Assembly: GCA_026004495.1 (NCBI GenBank)
Contig: BPJG01000001.1
Coordinates: forward strand, 70,470-134,469
Direction of reading: 5' to 3'
Length of the DNA: 64,000 nucleotides
Source of the DNA: Candidatus Parcubacteria bacterium
GTDB lineage: Bacteria > Patescibacteriota > Minisyncoccia > UBA6257 > HR35
Position 1 is the first letter of the stretch; every line of letters starts with the position of its first letter. The notes under the pieces were generated by a model. It searched no databases. It saw only the letters and a list, made by a program, of their open reading frames with translations, and was not told where the DNA came from. Shown here one piece after another: positions 2-56,753 of the stretch. The translations under genes were made by a program, and so were the position numbers.

Positions 2-235
2 CTTCAAGGCTTAGCAGATGAAAGAAATGAATCAGTCAAAAAATTAATTAGTGAAGTAATTAGAAAATGTAAAGAAAAAGGAAAATATGTAGGAATTTGC
101 GGACAAGCACCAAGTGATTTTCCAGAAATTGTTGAATTATTGGTCAAAGAAGGAATTGAAAGTCTAAGTGTTAATAGCGATGTAGTGGTTAAAACGATTG
201 AAATGGTTAAAAAATTTGAAGATGAAAATAAATGA
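2..235 (+). CDS. PEP-utilising enzyme C-terminal domain (PEP synthase / pyruvate,phosphate dikinase family), 3' partial
   Basis: Absent from the ORF track because it has no start in the window. Frame 2 reads ...KCKEKGKYVGICGQAPSDFPEIVELLVKEGIESLSVNSDVVVKTIEMVKKFEDENK*. The GICGQ.PS.P...L...GI.S.SV region is typical of the C-terminal TIM-barrel of PpsA/PPDK. The TGA at 233-235 overlaps the eno start. Confidence 0.75.
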   Translation, partial: LQGLADERNESVKKLISEVIRKCKEKGKYVGICGQAPSDFPEIVELLVKEGIESLSVNSDVVVKTIEMVKKFEDENK

Positions 236-2072: not shown

Positions 2073-3941
2073 ATGAAGATATTAATTTTAGGTGGAGGAT
2101 TTGGAGGTACTTATACTTTAAAACATTTGCATAAGTTTTTTCATAATAAGAAGAAAGTAAAATTGGTATTGGTAAATAAAAAGAATTATTTTATTTTTAC
2201 GCCTTTGCTTCATGAAGTCGCTACTGGTGGAGTTTCAATCGATAATGCTTTAGAACCTATAAGAGAAATTATTAAATGTTGCGATTTTGATTTTATCCAT
2301 GGAGAAGTTGAAAAAATTGATTTAGAAAATAAAGTTGTTTATATAAATAAAGAAAGAGAAAATTATAATGTTGATTACGATTATTTAGTTATTGCTTTAG
2401 GTTCAAAAACAAATTATTATAATATTACAGGCGCTAAAGAATTTACCTTTTCTTTAAAAACAGTTGATGATGCCATAAGGCTGAAAAATAGATTTGTTCA
2501 TATGTTTGAATTAGCGAGTGTAGCGCAGACCTGCGCAGACTACACGCAGACTAACGCAGACAATATTAAGACGCAGACTGATGCGAACTACACGCAGGCT
2601 GATGCAGGCAATAATGTAGTGCAGACTAATGCAGAAAACAACGAGAATTTTCTTTATGAAGATTTAAGCTATAAAATTATAGGAATAGCTTATAAAATTA
2701 AAAAGAATTTAGGATTGGGACATAAAGAAAAAGTTTATACGAATTCCCTTGAACTTGAACTTAAAAAAGAAAATATCATTTATAAAAGAGAGGAAAAAAT
2801 CAGCGTGGTATATGATGGAAAAATAGTAGGAAACTATATACCAGATTTTGTAATAGAGGATAAAATTATTGTGGAATTAAAAACACTCCCCTTAATAGAT
2901 GAGAAGACAAAAAAGCAAATCTGGAATTATTTAAAGGGAACTAAATATAGACTTGCAATTTTGATTAATTTTGGCAAGAAAGATGTGGAAATATCTAGGA
3001 TAATTTATGATAAAGCAAGAAATTCTAATAGTCAGCAAGAGTCTGCGTCCAGTCAGAAGGTTGATAATAATGAAAGTCTGCAAAAGTCCGCGTCCAGTCT
3101 GCAAAAGTCTGAGTCTAATAAATATTTAACTTTTGTCATTGTCGGAGGTGGAGCAACTGGAGTTGAACTTGCTGGTGAAATGAGTGATTTGTTTTATAAA
3201 ACATTTAGTAAATTATATTCATCAGATTTAATTTCACAAGTTAAAATAATTCTAATCGAAAAAGGCAAAGAATTAATTCCTCAATTTTCTCCAAAATTAA
3301 GACAAAAAGCACTTGAAAGGTTAAAAAAATTAAAAGTTGATATTAGATTGGAAAGAGGAGTAATTGAAGTTGGTGAAGATTTTATTAAACTTGATGATGG
3401 TAATGTTATCGAAACAAAAACAGTTATTTGGGCAGCAGGAGTTGAAACTAATTTACCAGAAATTATTGGCAAGGTTGAAAAGGATAATAAAGGAAGATTA
3501 GTTGTAAATGAATATCTACAAGTAAAAAAGAAAATAGATATGTTAAGTCAGCAAGAATCTGCGTTAAGTCAGCAAGAGTCTGCGTACGATAATGTTTTTG
3601 CCATTGGTGATGTTTGTTGTTTTATTCAAGACCAAAAGCCTTTGCCACAATTAGCTCAAGTTGCAGTTAGACAAGTAAAAACAGTTTCTTTAAATATTAA
3701 AAATTCGATTGAAAATAAGACTTTACAAAAATTTGCTTACAAACATACTGGTGATTTAATTTCAGTTGGTAGATTTTATGCCCTAGGAGAAATTAAAGGA
3801 GTTGAATTTTCAGGTTTAATTAGTTGGTTTATTTGGAAAGGAGTTTATTTAAGCAAAATTATTTCTTTTCGAGATCAAATCAAAACATTTATTGATTGGC
3901 TTTTGAATTTATTTTTACCCAGAGATATTACTGAATTATAA
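2073..3941 (+). CDS. ndh: Type II NADH dehydrogenase (NDH-2, FAD-dependent pyridine nucleotide-disulfide oxidoreductase) with two in-frame insertions
   Basis: MKILILGGGFGGTY (first GxGxxG). FVIVGGGATGVELAGEM (second Rossmann motif). VFAIGDVC near the C-terminus. At 622 aa it is about 200 aa longer than expected because of the insertions at 2518-3120 and 3543-3584. Confidence 0.85.
   Translation: MKILILGGGFGGTYTLKHLHKFFHNKKKVKLVLVNKKNYFIFTPLLHEVATGGVSIDNALEPIREIIKCCDFDFIHGEVEKIDLENKVVYINKERENYNVDYDYLVIALGSKTNYYNITGAKEFTFSLKTVDDAIRLKNRFVHMFELASVAQTCADYTQTNADNIKTQTDANYTQADAGNNVVQTNAENNENFLYEDLSYKIIGIAYKIKKNLGLGHKEKVYTNSLELELKKENIIYKREEKISVVYDGKIVGNYIPDFVIEDKIIVELKTLPLIDEKTKKQIWNYLKGTKYRLAILINFGKKDVEISRIIYDKARNSNSQQESASSQKVDNNESLQKSASSLQKSESNKYLTFVIVGGGATGVELAGEMSDLFYKTFSKLYSSDLISQVKIILIEKGKELIPQFSPKLRQKALERLKKLKVDIRLERGVIEVGEDFIKLDDGNVIETKTVIWAAGVETNLPEIIGKVEKDNKGRLVVNEYLQVKKKIDMLSQQESALSQQESAYDNVFAIGDVCCFIQDQKPLPQLAQVAVRQVKTVSLNIKNSIENKTLQKFAYKHTGDLISVGRFYALGEIKGVEFSGLISWFIWKGVYLSKIISFRDQIKTFIDWLLNLFLPRDITEL
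2518..3120 (+). mobile_element. In-frame insertion cassette: 5' repeat arms, GxxExxY-family PD-(D/E)XK domain, then 3' inverted repeat arms
   Basis: The core is YEDLSYKIIGIAYKIKKNLGLGHKEKVYTNSLELELKKENIIYKREEKISVVYDGKIVGNYIPDFVIEDKIIVELKTLPLIDEKTKKQIWNYLKGTKYRLAILINFGKK, which is GxxExxY-like with the D...E.K nuclease motif. The 5' side carries repeated gcgcagac/acgcagac words (2521-2640). The 3' side carries gtctgcgt/gtctgca words (3030-3115), their reverse complement. The cassette lies between ...FELAS and KYLTFVIVGGG of NDH-2. Confidence 0.75.
3543..3584 (+). repeat. Solo tandem 21-nt repeat arms inserted in frame in ndh
   Basis: ttaagtcagcaagaatctgcg is followed by ttaagtcagcaagagtctgcg, translating LSQQESA LSQQESA. 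The word agtcagcaagagtctgcgt is identical to 3030-3048 in the large cassette. Confidence 0.8.
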
Positions 3942-10985: not shown

Positions 10986-12674
10986 ATGATAGAATTGCCA
11001 TTTATATTCAAATTATCAATATTATTTTTAATCTCCTTTATTTTAGGTTTTTTATTTAATTTAATAAAACAACCTTTAATAATCGCCTATATTATATCTG
11101 GAATTATAGCCGGAAATTATTTAATTGATTCTTTAGAAACTAAAAATATTTTAAGCATATTTTCAGAAATCGGTGTAGCTTTAATGCTTTTTATTGTTGG
11201 CTTAGAGTTAAAACTAAAAGTTATTAAGGATATTGGAAAAAATGTTGCAATCATAGCTATCTTGCAAGAACTATCAGTAATTATTTTGGGTTTTGTGATA
11301 TCCTTAATTTTAGGTTTTAACCATATAGAATCTCTTTATATAGGAATTGCCCTTTCTTTTAGTAGTACAATTATTATTATTAAATTACTTTCTGATAAGG
11401 GCGATTTAGAAAAATTTTATGGTAAATTAGCTATTGGTTTTTTAATTATCCAAGATATAATATCAATAATTTTAATATTATTAATTCCATTTTTTTCCCT
11501 TAATAAAAATTTTATAAACCTAGAAAACAATTTATTAATTATTAGTTTTGTAATATTATTAATATTTTTTACGGTTCGTTATTTAATTCCTAAATTAGAA
11601 AATTTAATTACCAAAACAAATGAATTGCTATTTATTTTCTCATTCTCCTTTGTTTTATTATTATCTTCATTATTTAAATTAGTGGGAATAGGATTAGAAA
11701 TTGGAGCTTTGATAGCTGGACTAATATTAGCTAATTATCAATTTAGTTCAGAAATTAATTTTAAGTTGAGGCCAATAAAAAATTTTTTCTTAATAATATT
11801 TTTTATATATTTAGGTTTAAATATTAAATTTCCTCAAATAGAAAATGAATTGTTTAAAATCTTAACATTTTCCTTTTTTATTTTGATAATTCAACCAATA
11901 ATCAGTTTTTTCTTATTAAAATTACTTAAAATAGGTAATAGGCAAGCTTTTAAATTTAGTTTGATTTCGGCACAAATAAGTGAATTCTCTTTTATTATTA
12001 TCGGTCTTGGAAATAAATTAGGTCAAATAGAAAATAATTTATTCTCAACAATTTCTTTTATCGGAATTATAACTATATTTCTTTCAATTTATATGTTTTA
12101 TTATTCAGACAAAATATACAATTTAATTTTTAAAAAAATATTAAAAATAAAAGATAGGGTTAATATTGATGAAGAAATAAAAAATAAAAATTTTAATATA
12201 CTTCTTATTGGTTGTGATAGAACAGGTTATAGTTTCTTACTAAGTATTAAGGAAAATAAAGAAAAGATTTTAATAATAGAAAATAATTATCAAAAAGTTT
12301 TAGAATTAAAAAAAATAAATTATAATGTTATCTATGGTGATATAGATGAATTTGAATTGTTAGATGAAATAAATCTTAAGCAGTTTAAAATAATAATTTC
12401 TACAATACCTGATTTTGAAACAAATTTAATACTATTAAGAAGATATAAAAAAGACAATCCCAAAGGAATATTTATTTGTAATTCTAATAAATTTAAAGAT
12501 AATTTAGAATTATACAAAAATGGAGCAAGTTTTGTTAACTTACCCCATTCTTTGGGAGGAGAAAAAATAGCTGATTTAGTTAATAATTTTGGTTTTGAAA
12601 TAGATGAATATGAAGCTATTAAAAAAGAAAATTTTGAAAAGATATATAAAATAATTAATTATTTAAAAATTTAA
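10986..12674 (+). CDS. Cation:proton antiporter (CPA2/Kef-type) with C-terminal RCK/TrkA-N domain
   Basis: About 11 TM helices. The N-terminus has QPLIIAYIISGIIAG, typical of Na_H_Exchanger proteins. The C-terminus has NILLIGCDRTGYSF (Rossmann RCK). Confidence 0.8.
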   Translation: MIELPFIFKLSILFLISFILGFLFNLIKQPLIIAYIISGIIAGNYLIDSLETKNILSIFSEIGVALMLFIVGLELKLKVIKDIGKNVAIIAILQELSVIILGFVISLILGFNHIESLYIGIALSFSSTIIIIKLLSDKGDLEKFYGKLAIGFLIIQDIISIILILLIPFFSLNKNFINLENNLLIISFVILLIFFTVRYLIPKLENLITKTNELLFIFSFSFVLLLSSLFKLVGIGLEIGALIAGLILANYQFSSEINFKLRPIKNFFLIIFFIYLGLNIKFPQIENELFKILTFSFFILIIQPIISFFLLKLLKIGNRQAFKFSLISAQISEFSFIIIGLGNKLGQIENNLFSTISFIGIITIFLSIYMFYYSDKIYNLIFKKILKIKDRVNIDEEIKNKNFNILLIGCDRTGYSFLLSIKENKEKILIIENNYQKVLELKKINYNVIYGDIDEFELLDEINLKQFKIIISTIPDFETNLILLRRYKKDNPKGIFICNSNKFKDNLELYKNGASFVNLPHSLGGEKIADLVNNFGFEIDEYEAIKKENFEKIYKIINYLKI

Positions 12675-18715: not shown

Positions 18716-19464
18716 TTCTTTATGATTATTAAAATATACCTTGATCTGAAAGTATTTTTTAGATCTTTAAAGTCAATACCTAAATTTTTATATTTTTCTT
18801 TAATTTTTCTAGTAAGTCTTCTAATAAAGAGATAATATTTCTTGATCCCGATTTTTTTTAAAATTTTTTTTATTTCTGATGGTAAATAAGCTGCTCGAGC
18901 TGAATAATAAATTAATTTTTTACTTAGATTATCAGGCGGTATAACCATTTTTAAAAGATAATAAGGTACATCTCTTCTTAAATCTTGAATATAAATTAAA
19001 CTATTTTGTTTTGTCACCCTTAGCATTTCTTTTATTGCTTTAGAAGTATTTTTAAATTGATGCAAACTATCTTTACACACAACAATGTCAAAATAATTAT
19101 TAGGAAAATTTAATTTATGAATATCATCTGAGATAAATTTTGTATTTTTGCAACCCTTACAGTTTTTCTTTGCCAATTGAAGTGCAAATTTAGTGTTGTC
19201 TATTCCGATAATTAAAGCATTTGGAAACCTTAAAGCAAGCTCTTTGCATAAAAACCCAGGACCACAACCTACATCAAGAATTTTAATTTTTTTATTGGTA
19301 TCTATTTTTGTTTTGGCAAATTCAATTAAATTATCAACAAGCGGAATTATCCACTTTTTATAATTTATTGTTGACATTTTCTCAAATTCTTTATGCTCAT
19401 TAATACCCATTTCTTTAGGTTCGGGAATCCTCTTTTTAAAAAATAGTTTTACTTTATTACCCAT
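18712..19464 (-). CDS. Class I SAM-dependent methyltransferase
   Basis: ILDVGCGPGFL (motif I) and FDIVVCKDSLHQF. Confidence 0.8.
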   Translation of the reverse strand: MGNKVKLFFKKRIPEPKEMGINEHKEFEKMSTINYKKWIIPLVDNLIEFAKTKIDTNKKIKILDVGCGPGFLCKELALRFPNALIIGIDNTKFALQLAKKNCKGCKNTKFISDDIHKLNFPNNYFDIVVCKDSLHQFKNTSKAIKEMLRVTKQNSLIYIQDLRRDVPYYLLKMVIPPDNLSKKLIYYSARAAYLPSEIKKILKKIGIKKYYLFIRRLTRKIKEKYKNLGIDFKDLKNTFRSRYILIIIKK

Positions 19465-20987
19465 TTTTGTTTAATACCTGCCTTAAAATAAATTGGATCT
19501 TCGTAGGGGTGAAGGAAAATTTCTGGTTCTAATTGTTTTTTATATTTTTCTGAAGCCGTTGAATAAAGATGATTATATTCTGTTGAATGTTTAATTAAGG
19601 AGTTTACTACTTCTTTTTTAATTCGTTCTTTTAATTTAAAAGCCGGTTTTATATTCTTTTTCATCTCTATATGAATATGCAATTTTTGATTGTAATTTTT
19701 ATCATAGACAACTTGCATTGTAAATTTACCTGTAATATATTTTTGTAGTTCTGATTTTAATAAAGCTTGTCTAATATATTCAGGATATAAAATAATTCCA
19801 AACAAGGATACAGTAAAGTCAGATCTTTCATAAACATATACGAATGGCAATTTAAGAATTTTATCTTTTATTTTCAACTTCTCAGATTCTTTAAAGATAT
19901 CGATGCCTACTTCTTTTAATCTTTTTATCATTTCATCAAAATAAATAACCCCTCCATAATCAGGGAAACTATATCTTAGAATAGGAATTGAATCTCCATG
20001 TCCCGAGGCCAAGATTAAGCCATCTTTTTCTTCAAACCAAACAATATAAGGATGGTATTGAGCTAAAGTAGGAGTTCTGGTAGCGTCTCTAAAGAGATTT
20101 CTAAAAACTTTATCTTTTTCAACAGCAATGTGCCTTATTAGGTTGGAAAAAGCTGTTTCATGTGCCATAGTTCCAAGTTCAACTGTACCATAAATATTGA
20201 TATTATCATTAAGCATATTTTCAAGATTGACCTTATTAGCGATATACTTTCTAAAGCTTTCAGGAAAGCTTTCAGCAGCATTTAAGATTCTTATTTTGAA
20301 TTTTTTAAATTGAACCCCGGCTGATACTGCTTCGTCGACTAAATCCTTGACAGAAGGAGGATAACCAACAAGAATTATTTGATCGTAATAAAATGATAGT
20401 TTTTGGAAAGTTTTTAATATTAATTCTTTATTTACTCCTATAGGAGCAACTGTTAATGGATATTTTTCGCTGAGTCTGTAGTAAACATAATAATTATGTA
20501 ACCCCCCAATCCATATACCTAATCCAAAGCTCAAAATAACTAAAGTATTAAATTTATTAATACCCCATTGATTTAAAAAGGCAGTTTCTAGTACATACAA
20601 TCCCTGTTCATCCAAATTTTCTCCTCTAATAAAATAAAAAGGCTCACCAGTAGAGCCCGAAGTTGCTGAAATTGTTGTTAGATTTAAATTTTCATTTGGA
20701 TAGAGTTGTTGATAAGGATATTGGCGAAGATAATTATTTTTATTCATAATTGGTAATTTAGCTAAGTCTCTAAAACCAGTAATTTCTCGATAATTAATTC
20801 CATTTTCTTTTAAGAATTGTTTATAAGCTGGTGTTGTTTCAATGGTAAATTTTACTAGTCTATCTATTTGTTTTTTGCCTAAATTCAACCAATAATCAGG
20901 TGGTCGTGTTTTTAATTCCTTCAATCTTTTATCTATGTTTTTGGGATATTTAAAATATATAAATTTTTTGTCCATTATGTTTCCCAT
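19449..20987 (-). CDS. Adenylate-forming enzyme, phenylacetate-CoA ligase / F390 synthetase (PaaK/CapK-like) family
   Basis: SATSGSTGEPFYF corresponds to the TSG(T/S)TG.P AMP-binding motif of the PaaK family. The size and C-terminal lid region are consistent with that family. Confidence 0.65.
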   Translation of the reverse strand: MGNIMDKKFIYFKYPKNIDKRLKELKTRPPDYWLNLGKKQIDRLVKFTIETTPAYKQFLKENGINYREITGFRDLAKLPIMNKNNYLRQYPYQQLYPNENLNLTTISATSGSTGEPFYFIRGENLDEQGLYVLETAFLNQWGINKFNTLVILSFGLGIWIGGLHNYYVYYRLSEKYPLTVAPIGVNKELILKTFQKLSFYYDQIILVGYPPSVKDLVDEAVSAGVQFKKFKIRILNAAESFPESFRKYIANKVNLENMLNDNINIYGTVELGTMAHETAFSNLIRHIAVEKDKVFRNLFRDATRTPTLAQYHPYIVWFEEKDGLILASGHGDSIPILRYSFPDYGGVIYFDEMIKRLKEVGIDIFKESEKLKIKDKILKLPFVYVYERSDFTVSLFGIILYPEYIRQALLKSELQKYITGKFTMQVVYDKNYNQKLHIHIEMKKNIKPAFKLKERIKKEVVNSLIKHSTEYNHLYSTASEKYKKQLEPEIFLHPYEDPIYFKAGIKQKWVIK

Positions 20988-22072
20988 TGTATAAAGGGTG
21001 GTTTTTTAACCGAGATGGCCGATGGTGGATCAGCTTTTCCTATTCTCATTACTGCGGTTAAAATATAATTATTTTTATCTACTTTAAATAATTCACATAA
21101 TTTTTGATAAGAATTATTAATAATGTTTAGCTCTTCTTCATTAAAAATATTTTTGTTTCCAAAATTAGCCTGTTGCCAAAAGAAAAATATTCCTGTAATT
21201 AGATGACAAGCTAAGTTTAACTTTGTAGCTCTAAGCCAAATATTTTCTATAAGCCTACCAAGATTTATAAATTCCTTATCATTATTAATAATAGAAAAAC
21301 CAATCATTGTGTTAGTAGCTGAATACATTTTAACTGTGTCTTTATAAATAGTTCTTACGATTCCTAATTTCTTCATTAATTTAAAGAAAGTAGTATTCCT
21401 TAAAAGTTTAATCATTAATATTTGAGGTGGTTTAAACTCCATTGTTTTGATATATAATCCCCTTTCTCCCTTTTGAGCTTTTTCTTTATCAAAAATGATC
21501 TCATTAAAAAGCAATTTTCTAAGATGGTCATTGTTAAAATTCAAATAAGTGTCATAAGCCAATAAACTGCCAATTTCATTTATTAAATCACCTTCAATTA
21601 TTGAAACCTTACAATTAGAGAAAAAATTAACTTCATTTAATAAATATTTTTTTTCTTCTTCTGTTAAGGCCTCTTTTTTGTAATGGTTTCTATTGGTTGT
21701 TCTTTTTTTAATATATTCATATAAGTCATCTTTCTCTTCAACGCCTGACTTTTCTAAAATAATTGAGGCTATGATATTATTTTCAAATTTCTCATTTATT
21801 GTTATTATGGGATTTAATTTATAATGCTTGGCTGTAATTACTATATTTTCAATTAAAGCCCCACAAGCAATTAAAGTACCTCTATTATTGTAATTTAATA
21901 TTGGATGATCTTTTTCTGGTAAATATCTTATTTTTATCGTATTTTGAGAAGCAATAAATTCCCATGGTTGAGAATTGCTTCCAGATGGAGCATTTAAGCT
22001 TTCTTTTAAAATATTTTCTATTAAAGATTTTTCAGGCATTTTTATTAATAATATTTTACAGCATATAATCAA
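20975..22072 (-). CDS. Double-domain nitroreductase-family protein
   Basis: NAPSGSNSQPWEF is the nitroreductase signature. A second lobe follows at about residues 200-365. The likely true start is MPEKSL at 22039. Confidence 0.7.
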   Translation of the reverse strand: MIICCKILLIKMPEKSLIENILKESLNAPSGSNSQPWEFIASQNTIKIRYLPEKDHPILNYNNRGTLIACGALIENIVITAKHYKLNPIITINEKFENNIIASIILEKSGVEEKDDLYEYIKKRTTNRNHYKKEALTEEEKKYLLNEVNFFSNCKVSIIEGDLINEIGSLLAYDTYLNFNNDHLRKLLFNEIIFDKEKAQKGERGLYIKTMEFKPPQILMIKLLRNTTFFKLMKKLGIVRTIYKDTVKMYSATNTMIGFSIINNDKEFINLGRLIENIWLRATKLNLACHLITGIFFFWQQANFGNKNIFNEEELNIINNSYQKLCELFKVDKNNYILTAVMRIGKADPPSAISVKKPPFIQWET

Positions 22073-22075
22073 TAT

Positions 22076-23188
22076 TTACAATTTTTTTAATTTTTTGAGG
22101 AAATATTTTTGTTGTTTTTTAAAATCTTTAGGTAAAATCGATAACATTTTATCAATATTTAATAAAATTCTTCCTTCTTTAATTTTTCCACCAAGAATAA
22201 TTTTTTTTGATAAATAAGAAACAGCTACACCGCATAAAGTTGCAGCATTACCTAATTGTGGCCAAGAATAAATTGTTTTTCCAACTTCTATTAATGAATA
22301 TAACATTCTTGGCGTTGCTAAATTAGCGCCTGCAATTTTGGCTGTAATCTTTATCATATCTTGAGGATTTAAATTTTTTAGATTTTCGGAAGATAAATTT
22401 CCCAAAAGACCATGAAGAATAGGATAATTAGGATTTAAATCGTATCTTTCGATGTCAATTAAAATATTATCGGCATGGTCTGTTGCCATAATTACAGGAA
22501 TTCTATATTTTTTAGCTTTCTCTCTTATTTTTATTTTGAGATAGAGATTATCCATTTCTTCAATTAAAACATCAATTTTAGGTTTAAGTAAAAAATTATC
22601 TATATTTTTATAAGTAATACCTTCTGAATAAATTTTCAAGCTTGCATAAGGATTTATTTCATAAATTTGTTGAGCACAATAAATTGCTTTATTAATTCCA
22701 ATCGACGAAATAGGATAACGTAATCTATTTAAATTAGATAAAGAAATTTCATCATTATCAGCTATTTTCATATATCTAGCTCCACCTATCATTGCGAGTG
22801 TTAAGGCTATATGAGAACCCACACTAAGACCTGCTATCCCTATTCTTGATTTATAAAACTTTATTTGTTCATCTTTGGTTAGAAGGTAAATATTTCTCGC
22901 AGTTTTAGTTTCAAAAAATTCTTTTTCATCTAAACAGTGAATTAATTTTTTATTCCAGGGGAAATATATCCATTTACCAACTTTATCTAATGTTTTATTT
23001 TTTAATTTTTTCTTTAAAAAATTTTCAAAATCTTGTTGATATTCTTTGATAAATTTATATTTAGGATTTTTAATTAAAAAATAATCTTCTAATTGTTTTT
23101 CGTAATTATCTATGATTTCTGATGGGTTTAATCTCTTTTTTAATAGCTCTAAACTTATATGATGAGCGTTAAAAATTAATGGCTTCAT
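22076..23188 (-). CDS. ThiF/E1-like adenylyltransferase with a roughly 110-aa N-terminal extension
   Basis: RIGIAGLSVGSHIALTLAMIGG...MKIADNDEISLSNLNRL (Rossmann motif plus the D.D....NL.R E1 motif). No CxxC zinc pairs were seen. Confidence 0.75.
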   Translation of the reverse strand: MKPLIFNAHHISLELLKKRLNPSEIIDNYEKQLEDYFLIKNPKYKFIKEYQQDFENFLKKKLKNKTLDKVGKWIYFPWNKKLIHCLDEKEFFETKTARNIYLLTKDEQIKFYKSRIGIAGLSVGSHIALTLAMIGGARYMKIADNDEISLSNLNRLRYPISSIGINKAIYCAQQIYEINPYASLKIYSEGITYKNIDNFLLKPKIDVLIEEMDNLYLKIKIREKAKKYRIPVIMATDHADNILIDIERYDLNPNYPILHGLLGNLSSENLKNLNPQDMIKITAKIAGANLATPRMLYSLIEVGKTIYSWPQLGNAATLCGVAVSYLSKKIILGGKIKEGRILLNIDKMLSILPKDFKKQQKYFLKKLKKL

Positions 23189-23427
23189 TGTCTAATTTGA
23201 ATATTATTTTAAATTATATCACAATCAATATAGTTTTTAAAAAATTATTTATTTTTTACTTATTTATTTCTCAATTTCTTAAGAAATTAAGAAAAACAAA
23301 ATTTTCTAATTTAATACATACGATGTCTTATTAATTTTTTTCATTATTCATCTCTATAGCAGAAAATAATGAAAATGCTTTGGAGTTTTGGAAAAATAAT
23401 AAAAACTTTGAATAAGGAGGTAAGACC

Positions 23428-23658
23428 ATGAGAGCCGTTCGAGTTGAAGAGCTAGAAATAATTTGTCACGAAGTAAGGCGCCGGATGTTCCAAACCATCC
23501 TCAATGCGGGAAGCGGTCATCTCTGTAGTTCGTCTTCCTCTGTGGAATGCATTTTTAGAAGTCTACAGAAATTTATAAATCTATATGTCTTCTGTTTAAT
23601 TTGTTTTGGTAATGTAAAATCCCATTCAGAATCTATACCCGGAGAACTGAAAGTATAA
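23428..23658 (+). pseudogene. Transketolase N-terminal fragment (only about 45 homologous residues)
   Basis: A strong SD (aaggagg, 23415-23421) precedes the ATG. MRAVRVEELEIICHEVRRRMFQTILNAGSGHLCSSSSSVECI resembles the transketolase ...R..I..M...AGSGH.GGSLS.VE.. motif. Homology is lost after about 23560. GC is much higher than in the flanks. Confidence 0.55.
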
Positions 23659-24723
23659 AGAAGTGATAGTCTGCTGTTTATAGAACTAGTAATTTCAAGA
23701 AGATGAGATAGAGTCATCCCATATCCGATAGAAGCAGAAACTGGTTTCTGGCTATTGTAATTGATCCCAAAAAGAAGTATTCTGCTGTCGATAAATTGTG
23801 TGGTAGTAAAATTGCTTCCGTGTATATTCTTTTGCCTACCCAGTTTTGTAGATGCCTCTCGACAAAAAATATATCAACGGCTAAAATTTATTGCTAAATT
23901 GAATAAAGCTCGTTGGCAATTGATGAAACCTTTTCATTTGGGTTTTTTATTTTGTGTAAAAACTCCTTGAAAACACCTCGCGCATTTGACTGATTGATTT
24001 CTAAATTTTTTAAGTAAGGGTATATTGCATTAAAAATACTAAGAAATTCTGAGTCAAACATTTGATCTATAACGCGGTCGCTCATGTTTGTACCAATTCA
24101 ATTATATCTCTCAAATGACCATTCGTCGTCTAGTTTTTCTAATGAGTCAGCAACCATGGCTTTTGCACCTGGAGGCGAAAATTTTTTTCATTTAGTTGCT
24201 TTACAGCTGGATCTTTGAATAACGGGTTAGGATAATTTAATGATTTTTCTCCGTTATGTTTAACGATAAATCTTTTCTCCTTGTAGATATCAAAGACCGA
24301 ACGAACGAATTCCTGATACAATTTGTTGTTTGTATTGAAGTAATTGTCGTAATCACAGCTTATCTGAATACTTTTCAAATCTTTCAGAATTACATCGCTA
24401 AAATAATTCAGAACGCTTATTGGTTCAGTAAATTTATACAAGTGACTTTTCGGGATCTTATAAAAATTGAAAATAAGATCTAATGTTCTTTGATCTGTAT
24501 CATTTAGTTTTCGTTTTTGTAGAAAATTTGATACTGCATTGGCAATTTTAAAAACGGTAGAACCGCTATAATGCATGCAAATTGGGAATCGAACAGAAAA
24601 TCCCTGTTTTCGTTTCCATCTAGCCCAAACGTCAGCCAATACAAAAATCCTTGCATGACTTAAACTCAGCGGGCACACCGGATGCATGTGAGCAATATCA
24701 ATAAAATATTTTTTATCTTCCAT
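23517..24723 (-). pseudogene. Class I aaRS-like (archaeal/eukaryal LeuRS-like N-terminus) gene, degenerate HIGH motif, broken downstream
   Basis: The 24139-24723 ORF reads FIDIAHMHPVCPLSLSHARIFVLADVWARWKRKQGFSVRFPICMHYSGSTV, matching P..sG.lH.GH.R.y...Dv.aR..R..G..V.FP...H.tG.p. Two in-frame TAG codons lie at 24139 and 24130. Frame changes follow, leaving pieces at 23894-24085 and 23517-23717. Confidence 0.5.
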
Positions 24724-24726
24724 AGC

Positions 24727-25341
24727 TTATATAAATAACGGTTTTATTTTTTCAAAAATTTTTCGGTGCCCAATTTCGTTAGGATGAATACCATCTTCGG
24801 AAAGCAACCCTAGATAATCAGACCTTAGCCATTCTTCAGCAATACTCAAAAAGGCGATATTCTTTTTTTTACACTCATCGCCAATGATCTTTTCATACGT
24901 TACGATTTTTTCATTCAAAAAATATACATTGTCCAATGGTGTTGTTTTTCGTTCGTCAACCGGGGTTAAACCAACGAAAATAATGTGATTGGTGTATTTA
25001 CTTGCGTTCTTAATGAGAAGTCTTATATTGTTTTTGAAGCCTTCTGCATTTGTAATAGGGTTGTCTATGGATTCGACGCATTTTGTATCGTTGATACCTA
25101 CTGCGAAAATGATAGAGGAATGATCGTCGGGATAAATTTTTCTACATCTTGCTTCAGCCTCAATTGGAAGTCGTTTAATAACTTCATTGGTTGATTCACC
25201 CGAGATGCTTAAATTATGGGTAAGAGTAAAATCTTTATCTTTTTTATCAAATTGTTGAATTAAAAGAGAGGGCCAAGATTTTATTTTTTCCACTTTTCTA
25301 CCCGCCGCTATGCTGTCTCCAAAAATTAGTATGTTGTACAT
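24727..25341 (-). CDS. SGNH/GDSL hydrolase
   Basis: ILIFGDSIAAG (block I), GINDT (block III), DGIHPNEIGH (block V). The gene is GC-richer than the genome background. Confidence 0.8.
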   Translation of the reverse strand: MYNILIFGDSIAAGRKVEKIKSWPSLLIQQFDKKDKDFTLTHNLSISGESTNEVIKRLPIEAEARCRKIYPDDHSSIIFAVGINDTKCVESIDNPITNAEGFKNNIRLLIKNASKYTNHIIFVGLTPVDERKTTPLDNVYFLNEKIVTYEKIIGDECKKKNIAFLSIAEEWLRSDYLGLLSEDGIHPNEIGHRKIFEKIKPLFI

Positions 25342-25412
25342 TAATTATTTTAAATTAAGTTTAATTTTTTATTTGTACGAATTATCTAATATAATAATGA
25401 CCTAATTATAAC

Positions 25413-26177
25413 TTAAAAATCAATAAATTTAAAAAGGAAAGGGAAAGATGGTGATCCAAGAAATATAGAAGTGCGTAAGTCCTCAAATCGCACCCCTTTT
25501 TCATTACTTTGAATGATTAACTTATATTTTTTGAGGTTCCAATAAGTCTTTATAAAGTTTCTTATTGCTTCTCGTCTGATTTGTTCTATAATCTTTTCAT
25601 AATAATTATCTAGAAATAATTTCTTAAAATAAAATAAAGCGTAAAGATTATCAAGAAAATAATCTCGAGGATCATCCATAACCAAATTGTTTCTATTAAT
25701 CAAATATTTTTTAATTAACTTAATTTCTTCAACTTCAGGTAGAATTTTTATTTCATTAAAAATAATATTTAAAATCTCCCTAATATTTTTTAGATCACTG
25801 CTAAATTCTATATAAACATAACCAAAATTATTGCCAGCTAGATAAGATCCAGAATAAACATCATAAATCAGACCATTTTCTTGTCTTAAAATTTTAAATA
25901 ATCTACTATTTTGCGGACCAGCTAATGTATTTAAAATAACCCCTTGTAAAATTGAATTCTCAACCCCAGTTTTTCTACTAATAGAAGGAATAATTAGACT
26001 AACACTTATGGTTTTTAGGTTGTGGTTGTGATTAAAAGCAAAATTTTTATTAAACCAATCTTTAGAATTAATGTGGATATCAATAGCTTTGGGATTTTTC
26101 TCAATATTATCAAATTGTTTATTCAATATATTTTTTAATTTATTAATCTTAAAGCCCCCTGTTATTGCTAAAATCAA
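25413..26177 (-). pseudogene. M16 (insulinase/pitrilysin) peptidase C-terminal half only
   Basis: ILAITGGF...LGVILNTLAGPQNSRLFKILRQENGLIYDVYS matches the M16 inactive-domain pattern. The ORF starts at a TTG, with an in-frame TAG 6 codons upstream (26196-26198). No catalytic HxxEH half is present. Confidence 0.6.
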
Positions 26178-26486
26178 TTGACTTCTCGAAATAATCTAAT
26201 ACAGTTACTACTGTCCCTTCTTTCGCCATCAAGGAAGATTCGTAACCTCCGCCACAACCGCATTCTATGCATTTTAAATTTATAAAATTTCCTATTATCG
26301 ATTTATAGTGATTATTTAATGCTTCGTTACAATAAAAATCCCATTTATCATTAATTTCAAATATATCGCCATGTTTTTTATAATAATTTAATCATTTTTT
26401 CCCAGTGATTATCCCAAAAGCGTCTTTCATCTAAAGCAAAGTCTTTTCGATGAAAAAATAATAAATCTATTATTTTTGTTAGCCAT
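26155..26486 (-). pseudogene. Class I SAM methyltransferase, multiply frameshifted and truncated
   Basis: Three frames give MANKNNRFIIF, then FHRKDFALDERRFWDNHWEK, then KKHGDIFEINDKWDFYCNEALNNHYKSIIGNFINLKCIECGCGGGYESSLMAKEGTVVTVLDYFEKS. The breaks lie at T and A homopolymers (about 26450 and about 26395). The gene ends within the M16 fragment. Confidence 0.6.
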
Positions 26487-26493
26487 CTGTTAA

Positions 26494-26867
26494 TCATTTT
26501 TTTATTAATCTTTTTATTATTTTTAGGGGCCTAAAATTTCTACTTATTTCTTCAAAATTTTTTTTACATATATCTCTATTATCTTTTGGGTAGTTACAAA
26601 GATAAATATCTAAAGTAAGGTAATTCAATTCAGGCCAAGTATGAATAGTAATGTGAGATTCAACCAAGCTAATCGGATCAGTGAAACCACCAGCAGAAAA
26701 TTTATAATAAAAGGATCCTAATTCGTGTATATTATATTTTTTAACAATGTTGTGAATGTATTTTTTCGTTTGATTTAAAGATTTCAGTTCTTCAACTTCT
26801 TTTGTGGTAATTTCTCCTAATATATGAAGTCTGGTAAATGGTCCGTTCTTGTTTTATTCATACACAT
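26494..26867 (-). pseudogene. S-adenosylmethionine decarboxylase (SpeH-type) paralog, start region out of frame
   Basis: The translation LGEITTKEVEELKSLNQ...FSAGGFTDPISLVESHITIHTWPELNYLTLDIYLCN contains the ESH..IHTWPE pyruvoyl-enzyme motif. This frame has no ATG, GTG or TTG. The upstream ATGs at 26861 and 26867 are in another frame. A TA-dinucleotide slip at about 26821-26826 would join them. Confidence 0.6.
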
Positions 26868-26885
26868 CCTTTTATTGAATGATAA

Positions 26886-28229: not shown

Positions 28230-29027
28230 TTAAATTAAATTTAAATTAATTATTCGTTTTTTATCAAAAAGTTTTTTAAAATCGTGTCCAATCTTGTCCA
28301 TCAAAAAAACTTTTGCTTTAGAACATTTTGTTCTTTGAAAAAAAATAGAACTGGTGTAGTTAATTGTTTCATCTGATTTACCGTGAAATATAATGATGTT
28401 AGGGTAATTTTTATCCATTTTGATAAAAGAGTCAGCCTCCTTGCCGGAAAAATATTTATCCCAACATTTATTTTCTATTCCCCTGAAAGCAAATTTATAA
28501 CCTCTTCTAAGAAATTCGAGGAAAGATATATTGAATTCATAAAATGCTTCTATATTTTTTGGGTTTTCTAGATATGCTAAAACCTCTTTTTTATGTAAAA
28601 ATAGTAAAGGAGCAAATAATAAAACATTCTTTACATCATTTTTGGATACTTTTGCAGAGATAACCGGATTACCAGCAAAACTGTAACCAATTAAATGTAG
28701 ATTTTTGTAATTCCAATATATCTCTTTATTGTCAAAAGTTTTTATCCCTTTTTTCTTTTTTACGAACTCAACTGCTAATTCTACAGTTTTTTTGCAGTTC
28801 TTATAGGTAAAACTGCCTCCACTTAACCAGCTTCCCAGATAATAAACGCTGAAGAAAGCAGTTTTTTTATCTACCTTATCAATAAAAAAATCTTTATCGA
28901 TTATTTGCGGTAACCCAGGGAAATAAATAAAAATATTTTCGACATTTACCTTGCCATTGTTAAAACTATCTTTTGTATAGTAGAAATGCAGTGCTACATT
29001 TTTATAGATAAAAAGTTCTAATTCCAT
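28230..29027 (-). CDS. Alpha/beta hydrolase
   Basis: HLIGYSFAG is a GxSxG-like nucleophile elbow. IIIFHGKSDE and GHDF are consistent with the acid and His positions. Confidence 0.6.
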   Translation of the reverse strand: MELELFIYKNVALHFYYTKDSFNNGKVNVENIFIYFPGLPQIIDKDFFIDKVDKKTAFFSVYYLGSWLSGGSFTYKNCKKTVELAVEFVKKKKGIKTFDNKEIYWNYKNLHLIGYSFAGNPVISAKVSKNDVKNVLLFAPLLFLHKKEVLAYLENPKNIEAFYEFNISFLEFLRRGYKFAFRGIENKCWDKYFSGKEADSFIKMDKNYPNIIIFHGKSDETINYTSSIFFQRTKCSKAKVFLMDKIGHDFKKLFDKKRIINLNLI

Positions 29028-30041
29028 ATTTTTTTAAGCTAATAAATATTTTTCCCTTTACCGCATCGATAATAATTTTTTTATTTCTATAGTTATCAAT
29101 TTTTCCTTTGATTATTTTTGATTCTACAAGACAAAAAATATTAAACTCTCTCGCTATGACTGCTATGTGTAAAAGAATGCCTCCAGTTATTATTAATCCA
29201 TTAATAAATGGAATTTTTTTAATCAACGAAATGTCCAGATTGCGTTTTACTAAAACAATATCATTTTATATTTATTTTATCATAATCTTCAATGTTTTTA
29301 ATTATTTTTAAAAATCAACTTGCGATACCCTTGTAAGCAATATTTCCTGTTCCTATGATTTTACTTTTGTCAAAAGTATAATTTATAATTTGGGGATATT
29401 TGTTCAGAGTTGTAATATTTCTACTTTGGAAAATATAAATTTCCTTACCGTCCCATCCCCATTCAATATCTAAGTATTCCCAAATATACCTTCAAGATTT
29501 AATGCTATCTTTGACAATTTTTTCAAAAATTTAGATTTCAGGTTATTTATTTTGGCTTTTTCAATTACCTTGATAATTGGTTTTTTATGACAACTAACAA
29601 CAGAATCTCCCAAGTCTTGGGTATATTCTACAATCATCTTATTGATATTTTGATTAAATGGATCGGCAGTAAATATCACTCCCGCAACACCTACGGGAAT
29701 CAATTCTTGAATGGCAATAGCCATACTTTCAAATTCCAGTCTGATATCATTTATTCGCGCGTATATTTTAGCATTATCACTAAATAAAGATCGATAACAT
29801 AATATAATTGCCTTTATAATATTTTCTTCCCCTTTTATATTTAAGAAGCTTGAATATTGACCAGCAAAGCTGAAAAAAGGGGGGATCCTCTACCCACACT
29901 TTTCTTTGATTATTTTTATTTTTTTGGATTTAGTTCCTACTTCTAAATTATCATAATCTTCTATAAGTTTTATATTATGGTAAATGAAATGTTTATCACA
30001 CATTAGCTTTAAAACCTCTTCTTTTAAAAAGTTCCTTTCAT
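29002..30041 (-). pseudogene. PEP synthase / PEP-utilising (rifampin-phosphotransferase-like) gene, multiply frameshifted
   Basis: The pieces, in order, are ...YDNLEVGTKSKKIKIIKEKCG*, MAIAIQELIPVGVAGVIFTADPFN...DLGDSVVS (ATP-grasp part, 29470-29724), DIEWGWDGKEIYIFQSRNIT, and GLIITGGILLHIAVIAREFNIFCLV (swivel phosphohistidine domain, 29002-29226). They lie in different frames. Confidence 0.65.
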
Positions 30042-30073
30042 CTTGGATTAATCAAATATTATTTTATAGGTCC

Positions 30074-30163
30074 TTATTTTTCCCAACGATAAATAGTAAT
30101 ATATCTAACATTAAGTAATTTCGCTATTTCAATTGTGGTCAAATAAACGTTCTTATTTTTCAT
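30074..30163 (-). pseudogene. Excisionase/AlpA-type helix-turn-helix stub (29 aa)
   Basis: MKNKNVYLTTIEIAKLLNVRYITIYRWEK* resembles the excisionase-family HTH (..lT..E.A..Lgvs..TiYrw...). It ends prematurely. Confidence 0.4.
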
Positions 30164-30372
30164 ACAATTCATATCATTAAATGACTTTGTTATACTTATA
30201 ATATAATTGCTGAACACTTTGCTAATGGTTTAGTATAATAATAGTAAAGGTCGAACACATCACAAACTATCTACTAAAACAGTTATCATAACTAATTATA
30301 ATAAAAAAGCTTTTATTCAAGAACAAGGGTCAAATGTTCTTGACATGGGCGGATTAAAAATAAAAATCAAAA

Positions 30373-30417
30373 ATTAGAAGAAATAGAGAGATTAGAAGAA
30401 ATAGAGAGATTAGAAAT
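30373..30417. repeat. 18-bp tandem repeat, 2.5 copies
   Basis: attagaagaaatagagag occurs twice, followed by attagaaat. Confidence 0.85.
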
Positions 30418-30558
30418 CAAATATCTTTACATCAGACCTTGACGACCTCATAACGAGTTTAATAAAAGGGCTATCTAAATATGGAAAAAGATATTTTAGA
30501 TATGTTTTATTAGTTTTAGATGATAAATAGTTTTATATAATAAAATATTTATATACAA

Positions 30559-31020
30559 ATGAATGATTACTATAAAATATATAATTATTTTTTGACCGCC
30601 ATTAAAAAAGATAATCCTTATGGTACTCCCCCAAAAATTAGTGGAGGAAATACAAAAAATATTAAAAATGCTTTATTAAAATTTTTAATTACCCTCGAAA
30701 AAATAACAACTTCGTCAAAATTAAAATATCAAGATATTTCTATATTTGTTTTAACTGACCCCAAATTTTTCTTTCCTCATAAAAAATCGAACATTACATT
30801 AGATGATTATGGAGCGCATTTAAAAGTAAGTACCAAGGGTTTGTTGTATCAAATCTTTCAAGCTTTGGATTTATCTAGACATTTTAATTTAGTCATAAAA
30901 TTATATAATCTACTTTCAGATTTACATTTATACTTATCAATGAATGATATCCCCTCAGTAGAAATATATAAAAATAAAACTTTGAAATTATTGAAAAAGT
31001 TAAAAGAATTGGTAATTTGA
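30559..31020 (+). CDS. Hypothetical protein
   Basis: 153-aa ORF. No motif recognised. Confidence 0.45.
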   Translation: MNDYYKIYNYFLTAIKKDNPYGTPPKISGGNTKNIKNALLKFLITLEKITTSSKLKYQDISIFVLTDPKFFFPHKKSNITLDDYGAHLKVSTKGLLYQIFQALDLSRHFNLVIKLYNLLSDLHLYLSMNDIPSVEIYKNKTLKLLKKLKELVI

Positions 31021-35899: not shown

Positions 35900-36289
35900 T
35901 CAGATTATTTTTAATATAATTTCTCTTTCTCTTGGTCCGTCAAATTCAATTAAAATTACTTTTTGCCAAGTTCCCAAAATTAAGTTCTTGTTTTCAAATG
36001 GAATAAAAAGAGAAACACCAATAAGTGAAGATAAAAAATGATCGGGAAAATGTTCAGGATTATGAGGATGAATATAATTTGCTCGAGGGGTAATTTTTTC
36101 AAAGGCAGTTAAATAATCTTTATTAGCACCAGGGTCTAGATCAGCAACAGTTAAAGCGCAGGTTGTATGTAGGGCAAAAAGGAAAACTAAGCTATTTTCT
36201 TTTTCTTGGTTGGTTAAAATTTTATTTATTTCTTCAGTAATATCAATAATTTCTTTTTTTTTATTAGTTCTAATAATTAATTTAAACAT
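35900..36289 (-). CDS. yjbQ: YjbQ/UPF0047 family (secondary thiamine-phosphate synthase) protein
   Basis: LFALHTTCALTVADLDPG...HFPDHFLSSLIGVSLFIPFENKNLILGTWQKVILIEFDGPRER. Confidence 0.85.
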   Translation of the reverse strand: MFKLIIRTNKKKEIIDITEEINKILTNQEKENSLVFLFALHTTCALTVADLDPGANKDYLTAFEKITPRANYIHPHNPEHFPDHFLSSLIGVSLFIPFENKNLILGTWQKVILIEFDGPREREIILKII

Positions 36290-36843
36290 TACTGATTTAT
36301 CTCTTCATTAATTTCAATAATTTTAAATTTTAATTTATCAGGATCAATATTTAGAACTTCAATAGATTTAGGCAGATTAATTAGATTATTTCTATTAATA
36401 GAAATATTATAATTACTAGGCTCTAAATCAGATAAATCAATTACTGCTTTAATATTTTCAGTTTTAAAATTTTTAAAATCAAGTTCATTGCCAGAAATTA
36501 AAACTTTTATTTTTGAAATATTTAAATTAGACACACTTAAATTATCTTTAAGGTTAATAAATTCAATTGGAACTTCAACGATTTTTTGAATCTTTGTTTT
36601 GTTATAATTATTAACTATCCAAATTGAAAAAGAAATAAATAAAGCTAAAAAGCCAAAACCAATATTTTTTATTATTTTGCTATAATCAGACTTAAAAAGA
36701 TCATTAAAGGAATTTTGAAAATAATAATTTTTTAATTCTTTTATAATCTTGTCTTCGCTAATATTAAAAAATAATTTAGTATCTTTAACAAAAGAAATTT
36801 TTCCAGTTTCTTCAGAGATAATAATAATTAAAGCATCAGATGA
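36289..36843 (-). CDS. Same-frame continuation: CdaA C-terminus (SDALIIIISEETGKISF) fused to a TM segment and a YbbR/CdaR-like domain
   Basis: All 185 codons after the TAA are open in the cdaA frame. They read SSDALIIIISEETGKISFVKD...IGFGFLALFISFSIWIV (TM)...VEVPIEFINLKDNLSVSNLNISKIKVLISG...(YbbR-like). The first canonical start codon is the GTG at 36534. Confidence 0.7.
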   Translation of the reverse strand, partial: SSDALIIIISEETGKISFVKDTKLFFNISEDKIIKELKNYYFQNSFNDLFKSDYSKIIKNIGFGFLALFISFSIWIVNNYNKTKIQKIVEVPIEFINLKDNLSVSNLNISKIKVLISGNELDFKNFKTENIKAVIDLSDLEPSNYNISINRNNLINLPKSIEVLNIDPDKLKFKIIEINEEINQ

Positions 36844-37491
36844 TTAAGATAAACCTATGGCTGATCTATGACGAGTGCCTAATCTTTGATTATAATCATA
36901 AAAATCAGGCAACGGTAAATGAGCTGAAGCATATTTAATTTTATCATTTTTAATAATAATTGCGCCATCATGGAGCGGTGAGTTTTTATTGAAAATAGTT
37001 ATTATTAGTTCTGTGCTTATTTCACTGTTAAGTAGCTTTGCACCTTGGATAATAGAATCTAGAGTGATATTTTTTTCAAAAACTAAGATGGCTCCTATTT
37101 TATTTTGAGACAAATATTTTATAGCATTTAAGATGTTATCAATTAAAACATCTTTATTATTGAGATTTTTCTTTCTTTTTGGTACAATAATAGCAATCTG
37201 TTCTAAAAAAATCCTAAGCTCTCTCTGAAAAATTACGATTAAACTTAAAATTACAAAAGGTAGATAAAATTGAAGCAAATTTTTAGTTAGAGTAAGGTTT
37301 ACCCAATTAGCTACAAGAAATAAAAATACAAGAATTGAAAAACCAAAAATGATTTTATAAGAACGTGTTTTATTAATTATAGATATAGTAAAAAATACAA
37401 GAATACTTAATAAGAAAATATCTATAACATCTTTAATATAGATATTTTTAATTAAATAAATTAATTTTTGATAATCAATAAAATTATTCAT
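36844..37491 (-). CDS. cdaA: Diadenylate cyclase CdaA, terminated early by an in-frame TAA
   Basis: Three N-terminal TM helices. DAC-domain motifs GAILVFE, PLHDGAIII and RLGTRHRSAIGLS are followed by TAA (36844-36846), where homologs have the Glu of G(I/L)SE. Confidence 0.85.
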   Translation of the reverse strand: MNNFIDYQKLIYLIKNIYIKDVIDIFLLSILVFFTISIINKTRSYKIIFGFSILVFLFLVANWVNLTLTKNLLQFYLPFVILSLIVIFQRELRIFLEQIAIIVPKRKKNLNNKDVLIDNILNAIKYLSQNKIGAILVFEKNITLDSIIQGAKLLNSEISTELIITIFNKNSPLHDGAIIIKNDKIKYASAHLPLPDFYDYNQRLGTRHRSAIGLS

Positions 37492-56384: not shown

Positions 56385-56753
56385 TTATGTTATCCTAATA
56401 ATTTTTTTAAAAATAGTTTTTTTAGGTTTTAATAATTTTTTAAAGTCTTTATAAGAATTTAATATCTGCTGATGATAATTTTTAGTAAAATTACAAATAA
56501 ATAAATCTAAATTAACTAAATTTTTTTCGGGCCAAGTATGAATTGAAAGATGAGAATTAGACAAAATAAATACTATTGTTGTTCCATTATTTTTTTTAAA
56601 TGTATGATAAAGATATTTAATAAATTTTATTTTGTTTATTTTGAGAATTTTTTTTATTTCTGTTAAAAAATAATTAAATTTAACTAAGTTAAAATCACAA
56701 TTAATAAAATCTACAGAAATTTGATAACTTCTTGAAAACTTTGTTGTTTTCAT
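56385..56753 (-). CDS. speH: S-adenosylmethionine decarboxylase proenzyme (SpeH-type)
   Basis: ILSNSHLSIHTWPEKNLVNLDLFICNF matches (E)SH..IHTWPE......D.f.C. Confidence 0.65.
   Translation of the reverse strand: MKTTKFSRSYQISVDFINCDFNLVKFNYFLTEIKKILKINKIKFIKYLYHTFKKNNGTTIVFILSNSHLSIHTWPEKNLVNLDLFICNFTKNYHQQILNSYKDFKKLLKPKKTIFKKIIRIT

Follow-up and report, generated by a model that had tools for sequence, protein, structure and literature searches.

The membrane diadenylate cyclase CdaA/DacA (TIGR00159) is known from L. monocytogenes, B. subtilis, S. aureus and L. lactis (PDB 4RV7, 6HUW, 6GYW, 9G69), where a CdaA_N region of three transmembrane (TM) segments is followed by a DAC domain carrying the DGA and RHR motifs. 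In the cdaA-cdaR-glmM arrangement of Firmicutes, the cyclase gene is directly followed by that of CdaR, a YbbR protein in which a TM anchor precedes the PF07949 domain. The CdaR of B. subtilis has four YbbR domains. The YbbR part of CdaR has been reported to be located outside the membrane (PMC8316131). In the papers on CdaA consulted here, there was no statement on the role of the glutamate in the SEETG motif or on CdaA-YbbR fusions; these papers name only DGA, RHR and His170. The SEETG glutamate presumably has a role in metal binding, which forms no part of the evidence presented here.

The gene described here, cdaA-ybbR, is encoded on the minus strand of a 64,000-nucleotide stretch of DNA (hereafter the window) from the genome KatS3mg094. 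Its product shares with CdaA/DacA the three N-terminal TM segments and the DAC domain with DGA and RHR, at 35-45% identity over DAC. Unlike CdaA/DacA, the window gene adds a C-terminal TM segment and a YbbR domain in one polypeptide and has a TAA at codon 216; there is also no glmM nearby, its place after the gene being taken by yjbQ. With Firmicutes CdaR it has in common a TM anchor followed by PF07949, encoded directly after the cyclase, and the topology would place the YbbR domain of the window outside the membrane as well. In contrast to that CdaR, the YbbR domain is single, fused to the cyclase and without a gene of its own. The intact fusions KatS3mg095_0851 (P0001), KatS3mg097_593 (P0009) and the other members of P0002-P0011 have the same architecture and length, and the premature stop is found only in the window copy. 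We propose, with a probability of about 80%, that the locus represents a recent and real nonsense mutation in a natively fused cdaA-ybbR gene, which would make it a young pseudogene or null allele.

The minus-strand open reading frame 37491..36844 starts with ATG at 37491 and has 215 codons before the premature TAA at 36846..36844 (codon 216). This 5' part of the gene encodes the three N-terminal TM segments and the DAC domain up to HDGA and TRHR, and the C-terminal end of its peptide reads RLGTRHRSAIGLS / NQRLGTRHRSAIGLS. Immediately after the stop, the same frame opens with SSDALIIIISEETGKISF and continues for 184 sense codons (36292..36843) to a second TAA at 36291..36289; the original prediction counted 185 codons here, which is correct for the open frame if the final stop is included. 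The 3' part contains the last strands and helix of DAC, a linker, the fourth TM helix (TM4) and YbbR. An open frame of this length after the stop has a probability of ~3e-9 of arising by chance given its composition (24% G+C DNA); over this stretch, 17 and 44 stops interrupt the remaining two frames. The distal TAA overlaps by one base the ATG of the next gene (TAATG, 36291..36287), which is yjbQ (UPF0047, PF01894; 35900..36289, minus strand). Such an overlap of the yjbQ start with the distal stop fits the long frame as the native gene and 36289..36291 as its native stop. As predicted, no canonical start codon precedes the GTG at 36534, the first ATG, GTG or TTG in frame past the premature stop, and initiation there would yield an 81-aa piece without TM4 and without the first residues of YbbR. 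In the public record, the 215-aa product is GIW65586.1, misnamed 'ABC transporter permease', and the 81-aa product is GIW65585.1, a 'hypothetical protein'. A correction of the annotation is called for, in which the locus of GIW65586.1 and GIW65585.1 becomes a cdaA-ybbR pseudogene.

Domain searches were carried out on the joined cdaA-ybbR sequence with the stop masked or read through. In Pfam, CdaA_N (PF19293) matches aa 16-91 with 31.4 bits (cut-off 23.8), DAC (PF02457) matches aa 122-239 (36775..37128) with 129 bits and runs across the premature stop, and YbbR (PF07949) gives a single match at aa 307-391 (36319..36573) with 32.8 bits (cut-off 22.3). These matches and the frame itself directly bear out the predicted in-frame TAA inside the DAC domain, beyond which the frame runs on through a TM helix and YbbR. 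The NCBIfam equivalog TIGR00159 'CdaA' scores 205.6 bits, above its cut-off of 188.8, only with the stop read through. Hydropathy analysis indicates three N-terminal TM segments at about aa 22-40, 46-64 and 74-88, and a fourth hydrophobic segment, TM4, at aa 276-293 (36613..36666) between DAC and YbbR. The DAC motifs HDGA and TRHR are located at aa 174-177 and 206-209, respectively, and the premature TAA sits between RHR (aa 206-209) and SEETG (aa 226-230; 36802..36816). The sequence thus has the CdaA_N domain and the DGA and RHR motifs of a CdaA-type cyclase, but not a complete, uninterrupted DAC domain. As for CdaR/YbbR proteins, a membrane anchor precedes the YbbR domain; there is neither an independent gene with a start codon for this part nor a series of YbbR repeats.

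A homologue search of 5.8 billion protein clusters returned as its eleven top homologues (P0001-P0011) proteins of 394-416 aa and 39-55% identity, all of them uninterrupted CdaA-TM-YbbR single ORFs covering 96-99% of the joined window sequence. The named members come from Parcubacteria/Patescibacteria MAGs, Paceibacteria among them. In the alignment, homology spans the full length, with the post-stop part of DAC, TM4 and YbbR included. The invariant residues D219, S226, E227 and G230 of DAC, W291 of TM4 and P308 of YbbR are all kept in the window copy, the four of DAC being encoded after the stop; F311 is also among the YbbR positions. The similarity downstream of the stop is therefore genuine, with a C-terminus in the relatives that is homologous at TM4 (W291) and YbbR (P308) and not unrelated. 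The best match, P0001 (KatS3mg095_0851), is intact and 55% identical. Its gene context, fpg <> cdaA-ybbR > yjbQ ... SIMPL, is common to the window, and P0001 is considered the orthologue for this reason. Considering the whole-length homology to intact single-ORF relatives, the CdaA-TM-YbbR fusion is native to the clade, and it is the stop that is the anomaly. Of the interpretations offered by the original prediction, the favored one is thus a natural cdaA-cdaR fusion that was recently hit, with the closest relatives all uninterrupted at 394-416 aa and GAA at the site in the orthologue.

Fusions of this kind also occur outside Patescibacteria, as seen in 474-aa forms from Desulfobacterales and Geobacter, which comprise P0117-P0120, matched by both Pfam models, and a Geobacter ORF (L015). 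Two other candidate loci, L005 and L010, were rejected as fusions; they consist of separate cdaA and cdaR genes that share a frame and are set apart by a stop and one or two codons. A family-alignment scan of genome contigs detected mostly distant CdaA loci, and there were no close Paceibacteria relatives among the matches listed. The CdaA-YbbR fusion is accordingly not new; it is already present in public databases across several phyla, largely unremarked.

The examination of relatives proposed with the original prediction yields both the codon at the site and the state of cdaR. The codon aligned with the premature stop is GAA (Glu) in the syntenic orthologue P0001 and CAA (Gln) in the next relative, P0002, and the cdaR part is fused in all of P0001-P0011. 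The same column has Ser in the clade of P0004-7 and P0012, Arg in P0028 and Glu in most other CdaAs. The stop had been described as replacing a conserved Glu, which is right for the majority, while the alignment with its E, Q, S or R does not bear out invariance. Judged from this alignment, the column is a variable, surface-type position and not a conserved catalytic glutamate. The ancestral codon at the stop site could be GAA or CAA, either of which would become TAA by one substitution; the predicted single substitution stands, and its assignment to GAA is made less certain by the CAA of P0002.

The structural consequence of the stop was evaluated by comparison with S. aureus DacA (6gyw) and with an AF2 model of the orthologue P0001. 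Residues 112-262 of the query align with 6gyw, and about 46 of the 151 aligned residues (~30%) are located after the stop. The P0001 model (mean pLDDT 81) has four N-terminal helices at residues 7-102 over the TM region, DAC at 111-260, a long helix at 265-298 corresponding to TM4, and a beta-rich domain at 303-396 at the place matching YbbR. When superposed on crystal structures of CdaA, its DAC domain gives a TM of about 0.9 and an rmsd of about 1.4 Å. The stop site corresponds to residue 218 of the model at the end of helix 208-219, and the DAC elements following it are the strands 223-227, 234-238 and 241-243 and the helix 248-260. If the stop is obeyed, the 215-aa product would, according to the model, end before the final three beta-strands and the final helix of DAC and would also be without the invariant Ser-Glu pair. 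Because of the loss of these elements, and as judged from the fold and the conservation of the motifs, this product is most likely catalytically dead. The TM4-YbbR module, without a start codon of its own, would not be made. The predicted truncation of CdaA within its catalytic domain, with an orphaned regulator, would follow as the consequence of a recently hit fusion.

The proposed mutation depends on the TAA being real. HiFi errors are mainly homopolymer indels and not substitutions. KatS3mg094 is a MAG from Katase hot spring, consisting of the single contig BPJG01000001 of 634,165 bp. It was assembled with metaFlye from PacBio Sequel II HiFi reads (PMC9671151), and Table S3 of that work gives one contig, 21.6x coverage, 25.6% G+C and 623 CDS, and places it in GTDB as Patescibacteria; Paceibacteria; UBA6257; HR35, where it represents a novel genus. 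Run DRR290133 has a Logan contig that matches the window at 100% identity along 4,555 bp, the TAA included. It should be mentioned that the KatS3mg095 orthologue is found in this run too, from which the Logan contig and the MAG appear to be independent assemblies of the same data set. A real gene that is intact, with GAA or CAA, and a T introduced as a metaFlye consensus error would be compatible with this origin of all the evidence in one sample and one sequencing run, with the Logan assembly apparently built from the same reads, and a possible 1-bp homopolymer problem is seen in a speH-like ORF of the window. However, a substitution error in a HiFi consensus at 21.6x, from reads of quality >Q20 (PMC9671151), is very unlikely, and an independent assembler gave the same base within the 4.5-kb stretch of 100% identity. 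The identical TAA from a second assembler, together with the 21.6x HiFi consensus, makes an assembly or sequencing error at this base unlikely. A protein of the alternative allele is also not on record: there is no intact near-identical protein among the 5.8 billion protein clusters, where the best match is 55% identical, and both products, of 215 aa and 81 aa, are the sole members of their clusters. JGI metagenome contigs gave no match to a DNA pattern in which the variable base was set to N. A scan of GTDB species genomes with a peptide pattern did not recover the genome of the window, and exact-protein look-ups of two further window proteins, the fpg product and a protein of 622 aa, gave no record of either. 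We therefore regard the artefact as improbable, with only a small share of our confidence. An intact allele may also be present in the same population.

If the TAA is real, it could in principle be decoded by a suppressor tRNA or through leaky termination, so that full-length CdaA-YbbR is made, perhaps in reduced and regulated amounts. Such readthrough would account for a post-stop ORF that is perfectly preserved and evolves no faster than that of the orthologue, and for the yjbQ start that still overlaps the distal stop. However, TAA is the main stop in the window, accounting for 37 of the 51 stops at the ends of open frames that are 150 codons or longer, and the stop is not conserved, a sense codon (E, Q, S or R) being present in all relatives. 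The base following the premature stop is T, and UAAU terminates strongly in E. coli. A segment of 121 nt that includes the stop and the sequence behind it is less stably folded than shuffled controls (z = +1.44), with no stable stimulatory RNA structure after the stop in this folding comparison. All four tRNAs of the window are ordinary, with no suppressor among them. All that the window gene shares with the UGA recoding of Gracilibacteria/Absconditabacteria is a stop in frame within a conserved domain; the codon of the window is instead TAA, the main terminator, neither conserved in relatives nor accompanied by a stimulatory structure in the folding comparison. All six frames were also scanned for stops with at least 70 open codons on both flanks, which gave cdaA and five other cases. 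The three of these five with the longest flanks (22076, 24727 and 39153; the other two being 45677 and 56167) were translated, and each was rejected as an interrupted gene: 22076 is ThiF adjoining a nitroreductase-like gene, 24727 is a GDSL lipase adjoining an aminoacyl-tRNA synthetase fragment, and 39153 is two unknown ORFs with TGA between them. A second domain-interrupting TAA was thus not seen among the translated flanked-stop cases of the 64-kb window. TAA recoding in KatS3mg094 is rejected, as nothing in the window or in the relatives suggests decoding, and readthrough, which the original prediction had listed, is not supported and is given a very low probability. A related version, in which small amounts of full-length CdaA-YbbR come from low-level readthrough, or the 215-aa protein with its TM segments and partial DAC acts as a modulator, and in which the 184 codons remain under continuing selection, is similarly improbable; if it were true, a stop codon would be throttling the synthesis of c-di-AMP in a Patescibacteria symbiont. 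The stop could also mark a functional fission, in which the N-terminal protein of 215 aa and a C-terminal protein with its own initiation work like separate CdaA and CdaR. Other phyla do have separate adjacent cdaA and cdaR genes, sometimes in the same frame as in L010 and L005, but the stop of the window falls inside the DAC fold and off any domain boundary, and the first post-stop start, GTG 36534, gives the 81-aa piece lacking TM4 and the first YbbR residues. We consider such a division of the gene highly improbable.

For the preferred reading of a nonsense mutation in a native fusion, the age of the lesion can be roughly bounded. When compared with nine outgroup proteins, the C-terminal part of the window gene shows a mean identity of 40.3%, the same as that of the intact orthologue, and this relative-rate comparison with the nine outgroups gave no signal of relaxed constraint downstream of the stop. 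The family-invariant residues are all retained after the stop. Of all single-base changes that the codons after the stop could undergo, about 4.8% would make a new stop, and the neutral divergence since the lesion is under about 11% (95% confidence), a loose bound that comes from the intactness alone. The nearest orthologue is 55% identical, at which synonymous sites are saturated. The lack of downstream decay, the retained invariant residues and the equal rate point to a recent nonsense lesion. It is noted that the complete preservation of the 184 downstream codons would also be expected under continued expression.

Older gene remnants with multiple hits are found elsewhere in the window, at about 23.2-30.6 kb. 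They include fragments of PPDK_N and PEP-utilizers broken by stops and frameshifts, a second AdoMet decarboxylase (AdoMet_dc) copy that has no usable start and whose conserved body stands in a different frame from the ATG close by (an intact copy is located at 56385..56753), a methyltransferase motif-I fragment, an M16 peptidase fragment consisting of an M16_C-only ORF, and an aminoacyl-tRNA synthetase fragment of 194 aa. The presence of these decayed genes indicates that gene inactivation is ongoing in this reduced genome, with cdaA as the case of a single lesion.

The original prediction had further connected the locus to c-di-AMP signalling through a 'Kef/RCK' transporter encoded at 10986. 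RCK_C/TrkA_C is the c-di-AMP-binding domain in known targets. The protein encoded at 10986 has Na_H_Exchanger and TrkA_N only, with no RCK_C/TrkA_C, and no c-di-AMP riboswitch was detected in the 64-kb window. A transporter without RCK_C and a window without such a riboswitch provide no support for a local c-di-AMP signalling link, and this connection is not upheld.

Taken as a course of events, the native product would have been a membrane diadenylate cyclase of ~400 aa with three TM segments, a cytoplasmic DAC domain, a fourth TM segment and one YbbR (CdaR-type) domain, the latter predicted by topology to be outside the cell. One substitution, from GAA or CAA to TAA, would have created the premature stop at codon 216. 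With the stop obeyed, the gene would yield a 215-aa membrane protein that is most likely a dead cyclase, and the TM4-YbbR sensor would remain unexpressed. Premature termination in cdaA-ybbR could also lower the translation of yjbQ, as the overlap of the two genes suggests. The null allele would be young, in a genome that is also losing genes elsewhere.

The locus is most likely an ordinary pseudogene at an early stage, derived from the gene of a signalling enzyme in a CPR genome, rather than a new mechanism. The membrane c-di-AMP cyclase is essential in many Firmicutes under standard growth conditions. Should the null allele be real and fixed, the membrane c-di-AMP cyclase may only just have been lost from this 634-kb Paceibacteria genome, and the gene would have been caught at the first step of decay. 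The case would then provide an example from nature in which c-di-AMP signalling is dispensable or is shed during reductive evolution.

The interrupted cdaA-ybbR gene is represented in GenBank by two entries, neither of which carries a pseudogene flag. GIW65586.1 (window 36844..37491) is a 215-aa CdaA fragment labeled "ABC transporter permease", and GIW65585.1 (36289..36534) is an 81-aa YbbR fragment labeled "hypothetical protein".

PEP synthase/PPDK-like remnants on the minus strand at 29000..30560, recognized by matches to PPDK_N (75.8 bits) and PEP-utilizers (25 bits), are interrupted by several stops and frame changes and constitute a multi-hit pseudogene. A second copy of S-adenosylmethionine decarboxylase (AdoMet_dc, PF02675) is located on the minus strand at 26494..26870, in addition to the intact copy at 56385..56753. 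Its conserved body, NKNGPFTRLHILGE...ESHITIHTWPE, lacks a canonical start and is offset by -1 in reading frame from a nearby ATG (MNK...), to which it would be joined by one additional A in the run AATAAAAC. Either the frameshift is genuine, or the HiFi reads carry a homopolymer error.

The minus strand at 23190..26400 holds several gene fragments close together. This cluster includes a 194-aa N-terminal fragment of a class I aminoacyl-tRNA synthetase (24139..24723, minus strand), followed by an ORF-less stretch of about 950 bp, as well as a minus-strand peptidase ORF containing M16_C only (25413..26177), with a methyltransferase motif-I fragment (IECGCGGGY) directly upstream of it. No Rfam match was found in the cluster. 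The cluster may be decaying acquired DNA, since the G+C content is raised to 0.32-0.37 over about 23250..25350, versus 0.24 for the whole window.

On the plus strand, the enolase (198..1502) matches Enolase_N up to residue 127 and Enolase_C from profile position 138, leaving residues 128-294 outside the Pfam matches as a possibly divergent or inserted segment. The 622-aa NDH-2-type pyridine nucleotide-disulphide oxidoreductase (2073..3941, plus strand) has an in-frame insert at residues 197-309, a PD-(D/E)XK_3 nuclease-family domain (PF13366, 112.8 bits). For the plus-strand transporter at 10986..12674, first described as Kef/RCK, the Na_H_Exchanger and TrkA_N domains are present, but a TrkA_C/RCK_C domain was not detected.

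A minus-strand cluster at 19449..23188 groups a gene for a ThiF-like E1 with genes for a nitroreductase-like protein and for a 512-aa protein of unknown family. In the neighboring MAG KatS3mg095, the cdaA orthologue also has a ThiF gene at a distance of a few kb, and this gene comes after one for a 510-aa protein without any Pfam match (L002 10616..13209). This MAG has two cdaA-ybbR homologues from different subclades, P0001 (KatS3mg095_0851) and P0012 (_0659). They may reflect two organisms rather than two paralogues, because the 1.0 Mb bin has an estimated contamination of 8.6%.

In Syntrophorhabdus (L010) and an Acidobacteriota MAG (L005), cdaA and cdaR are two genes in one reading frame, separated by no more than a stop codon plus one or two further codons (...LLG-stop-R-MELIRKY at L010 3718..3726; ...VRR-stop-T-VNFLRKY at L005 3781..3789). 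The fused form of Paceibacteria and Geobacter could therefore be created by losing a single stop between cdaA and cdaR.
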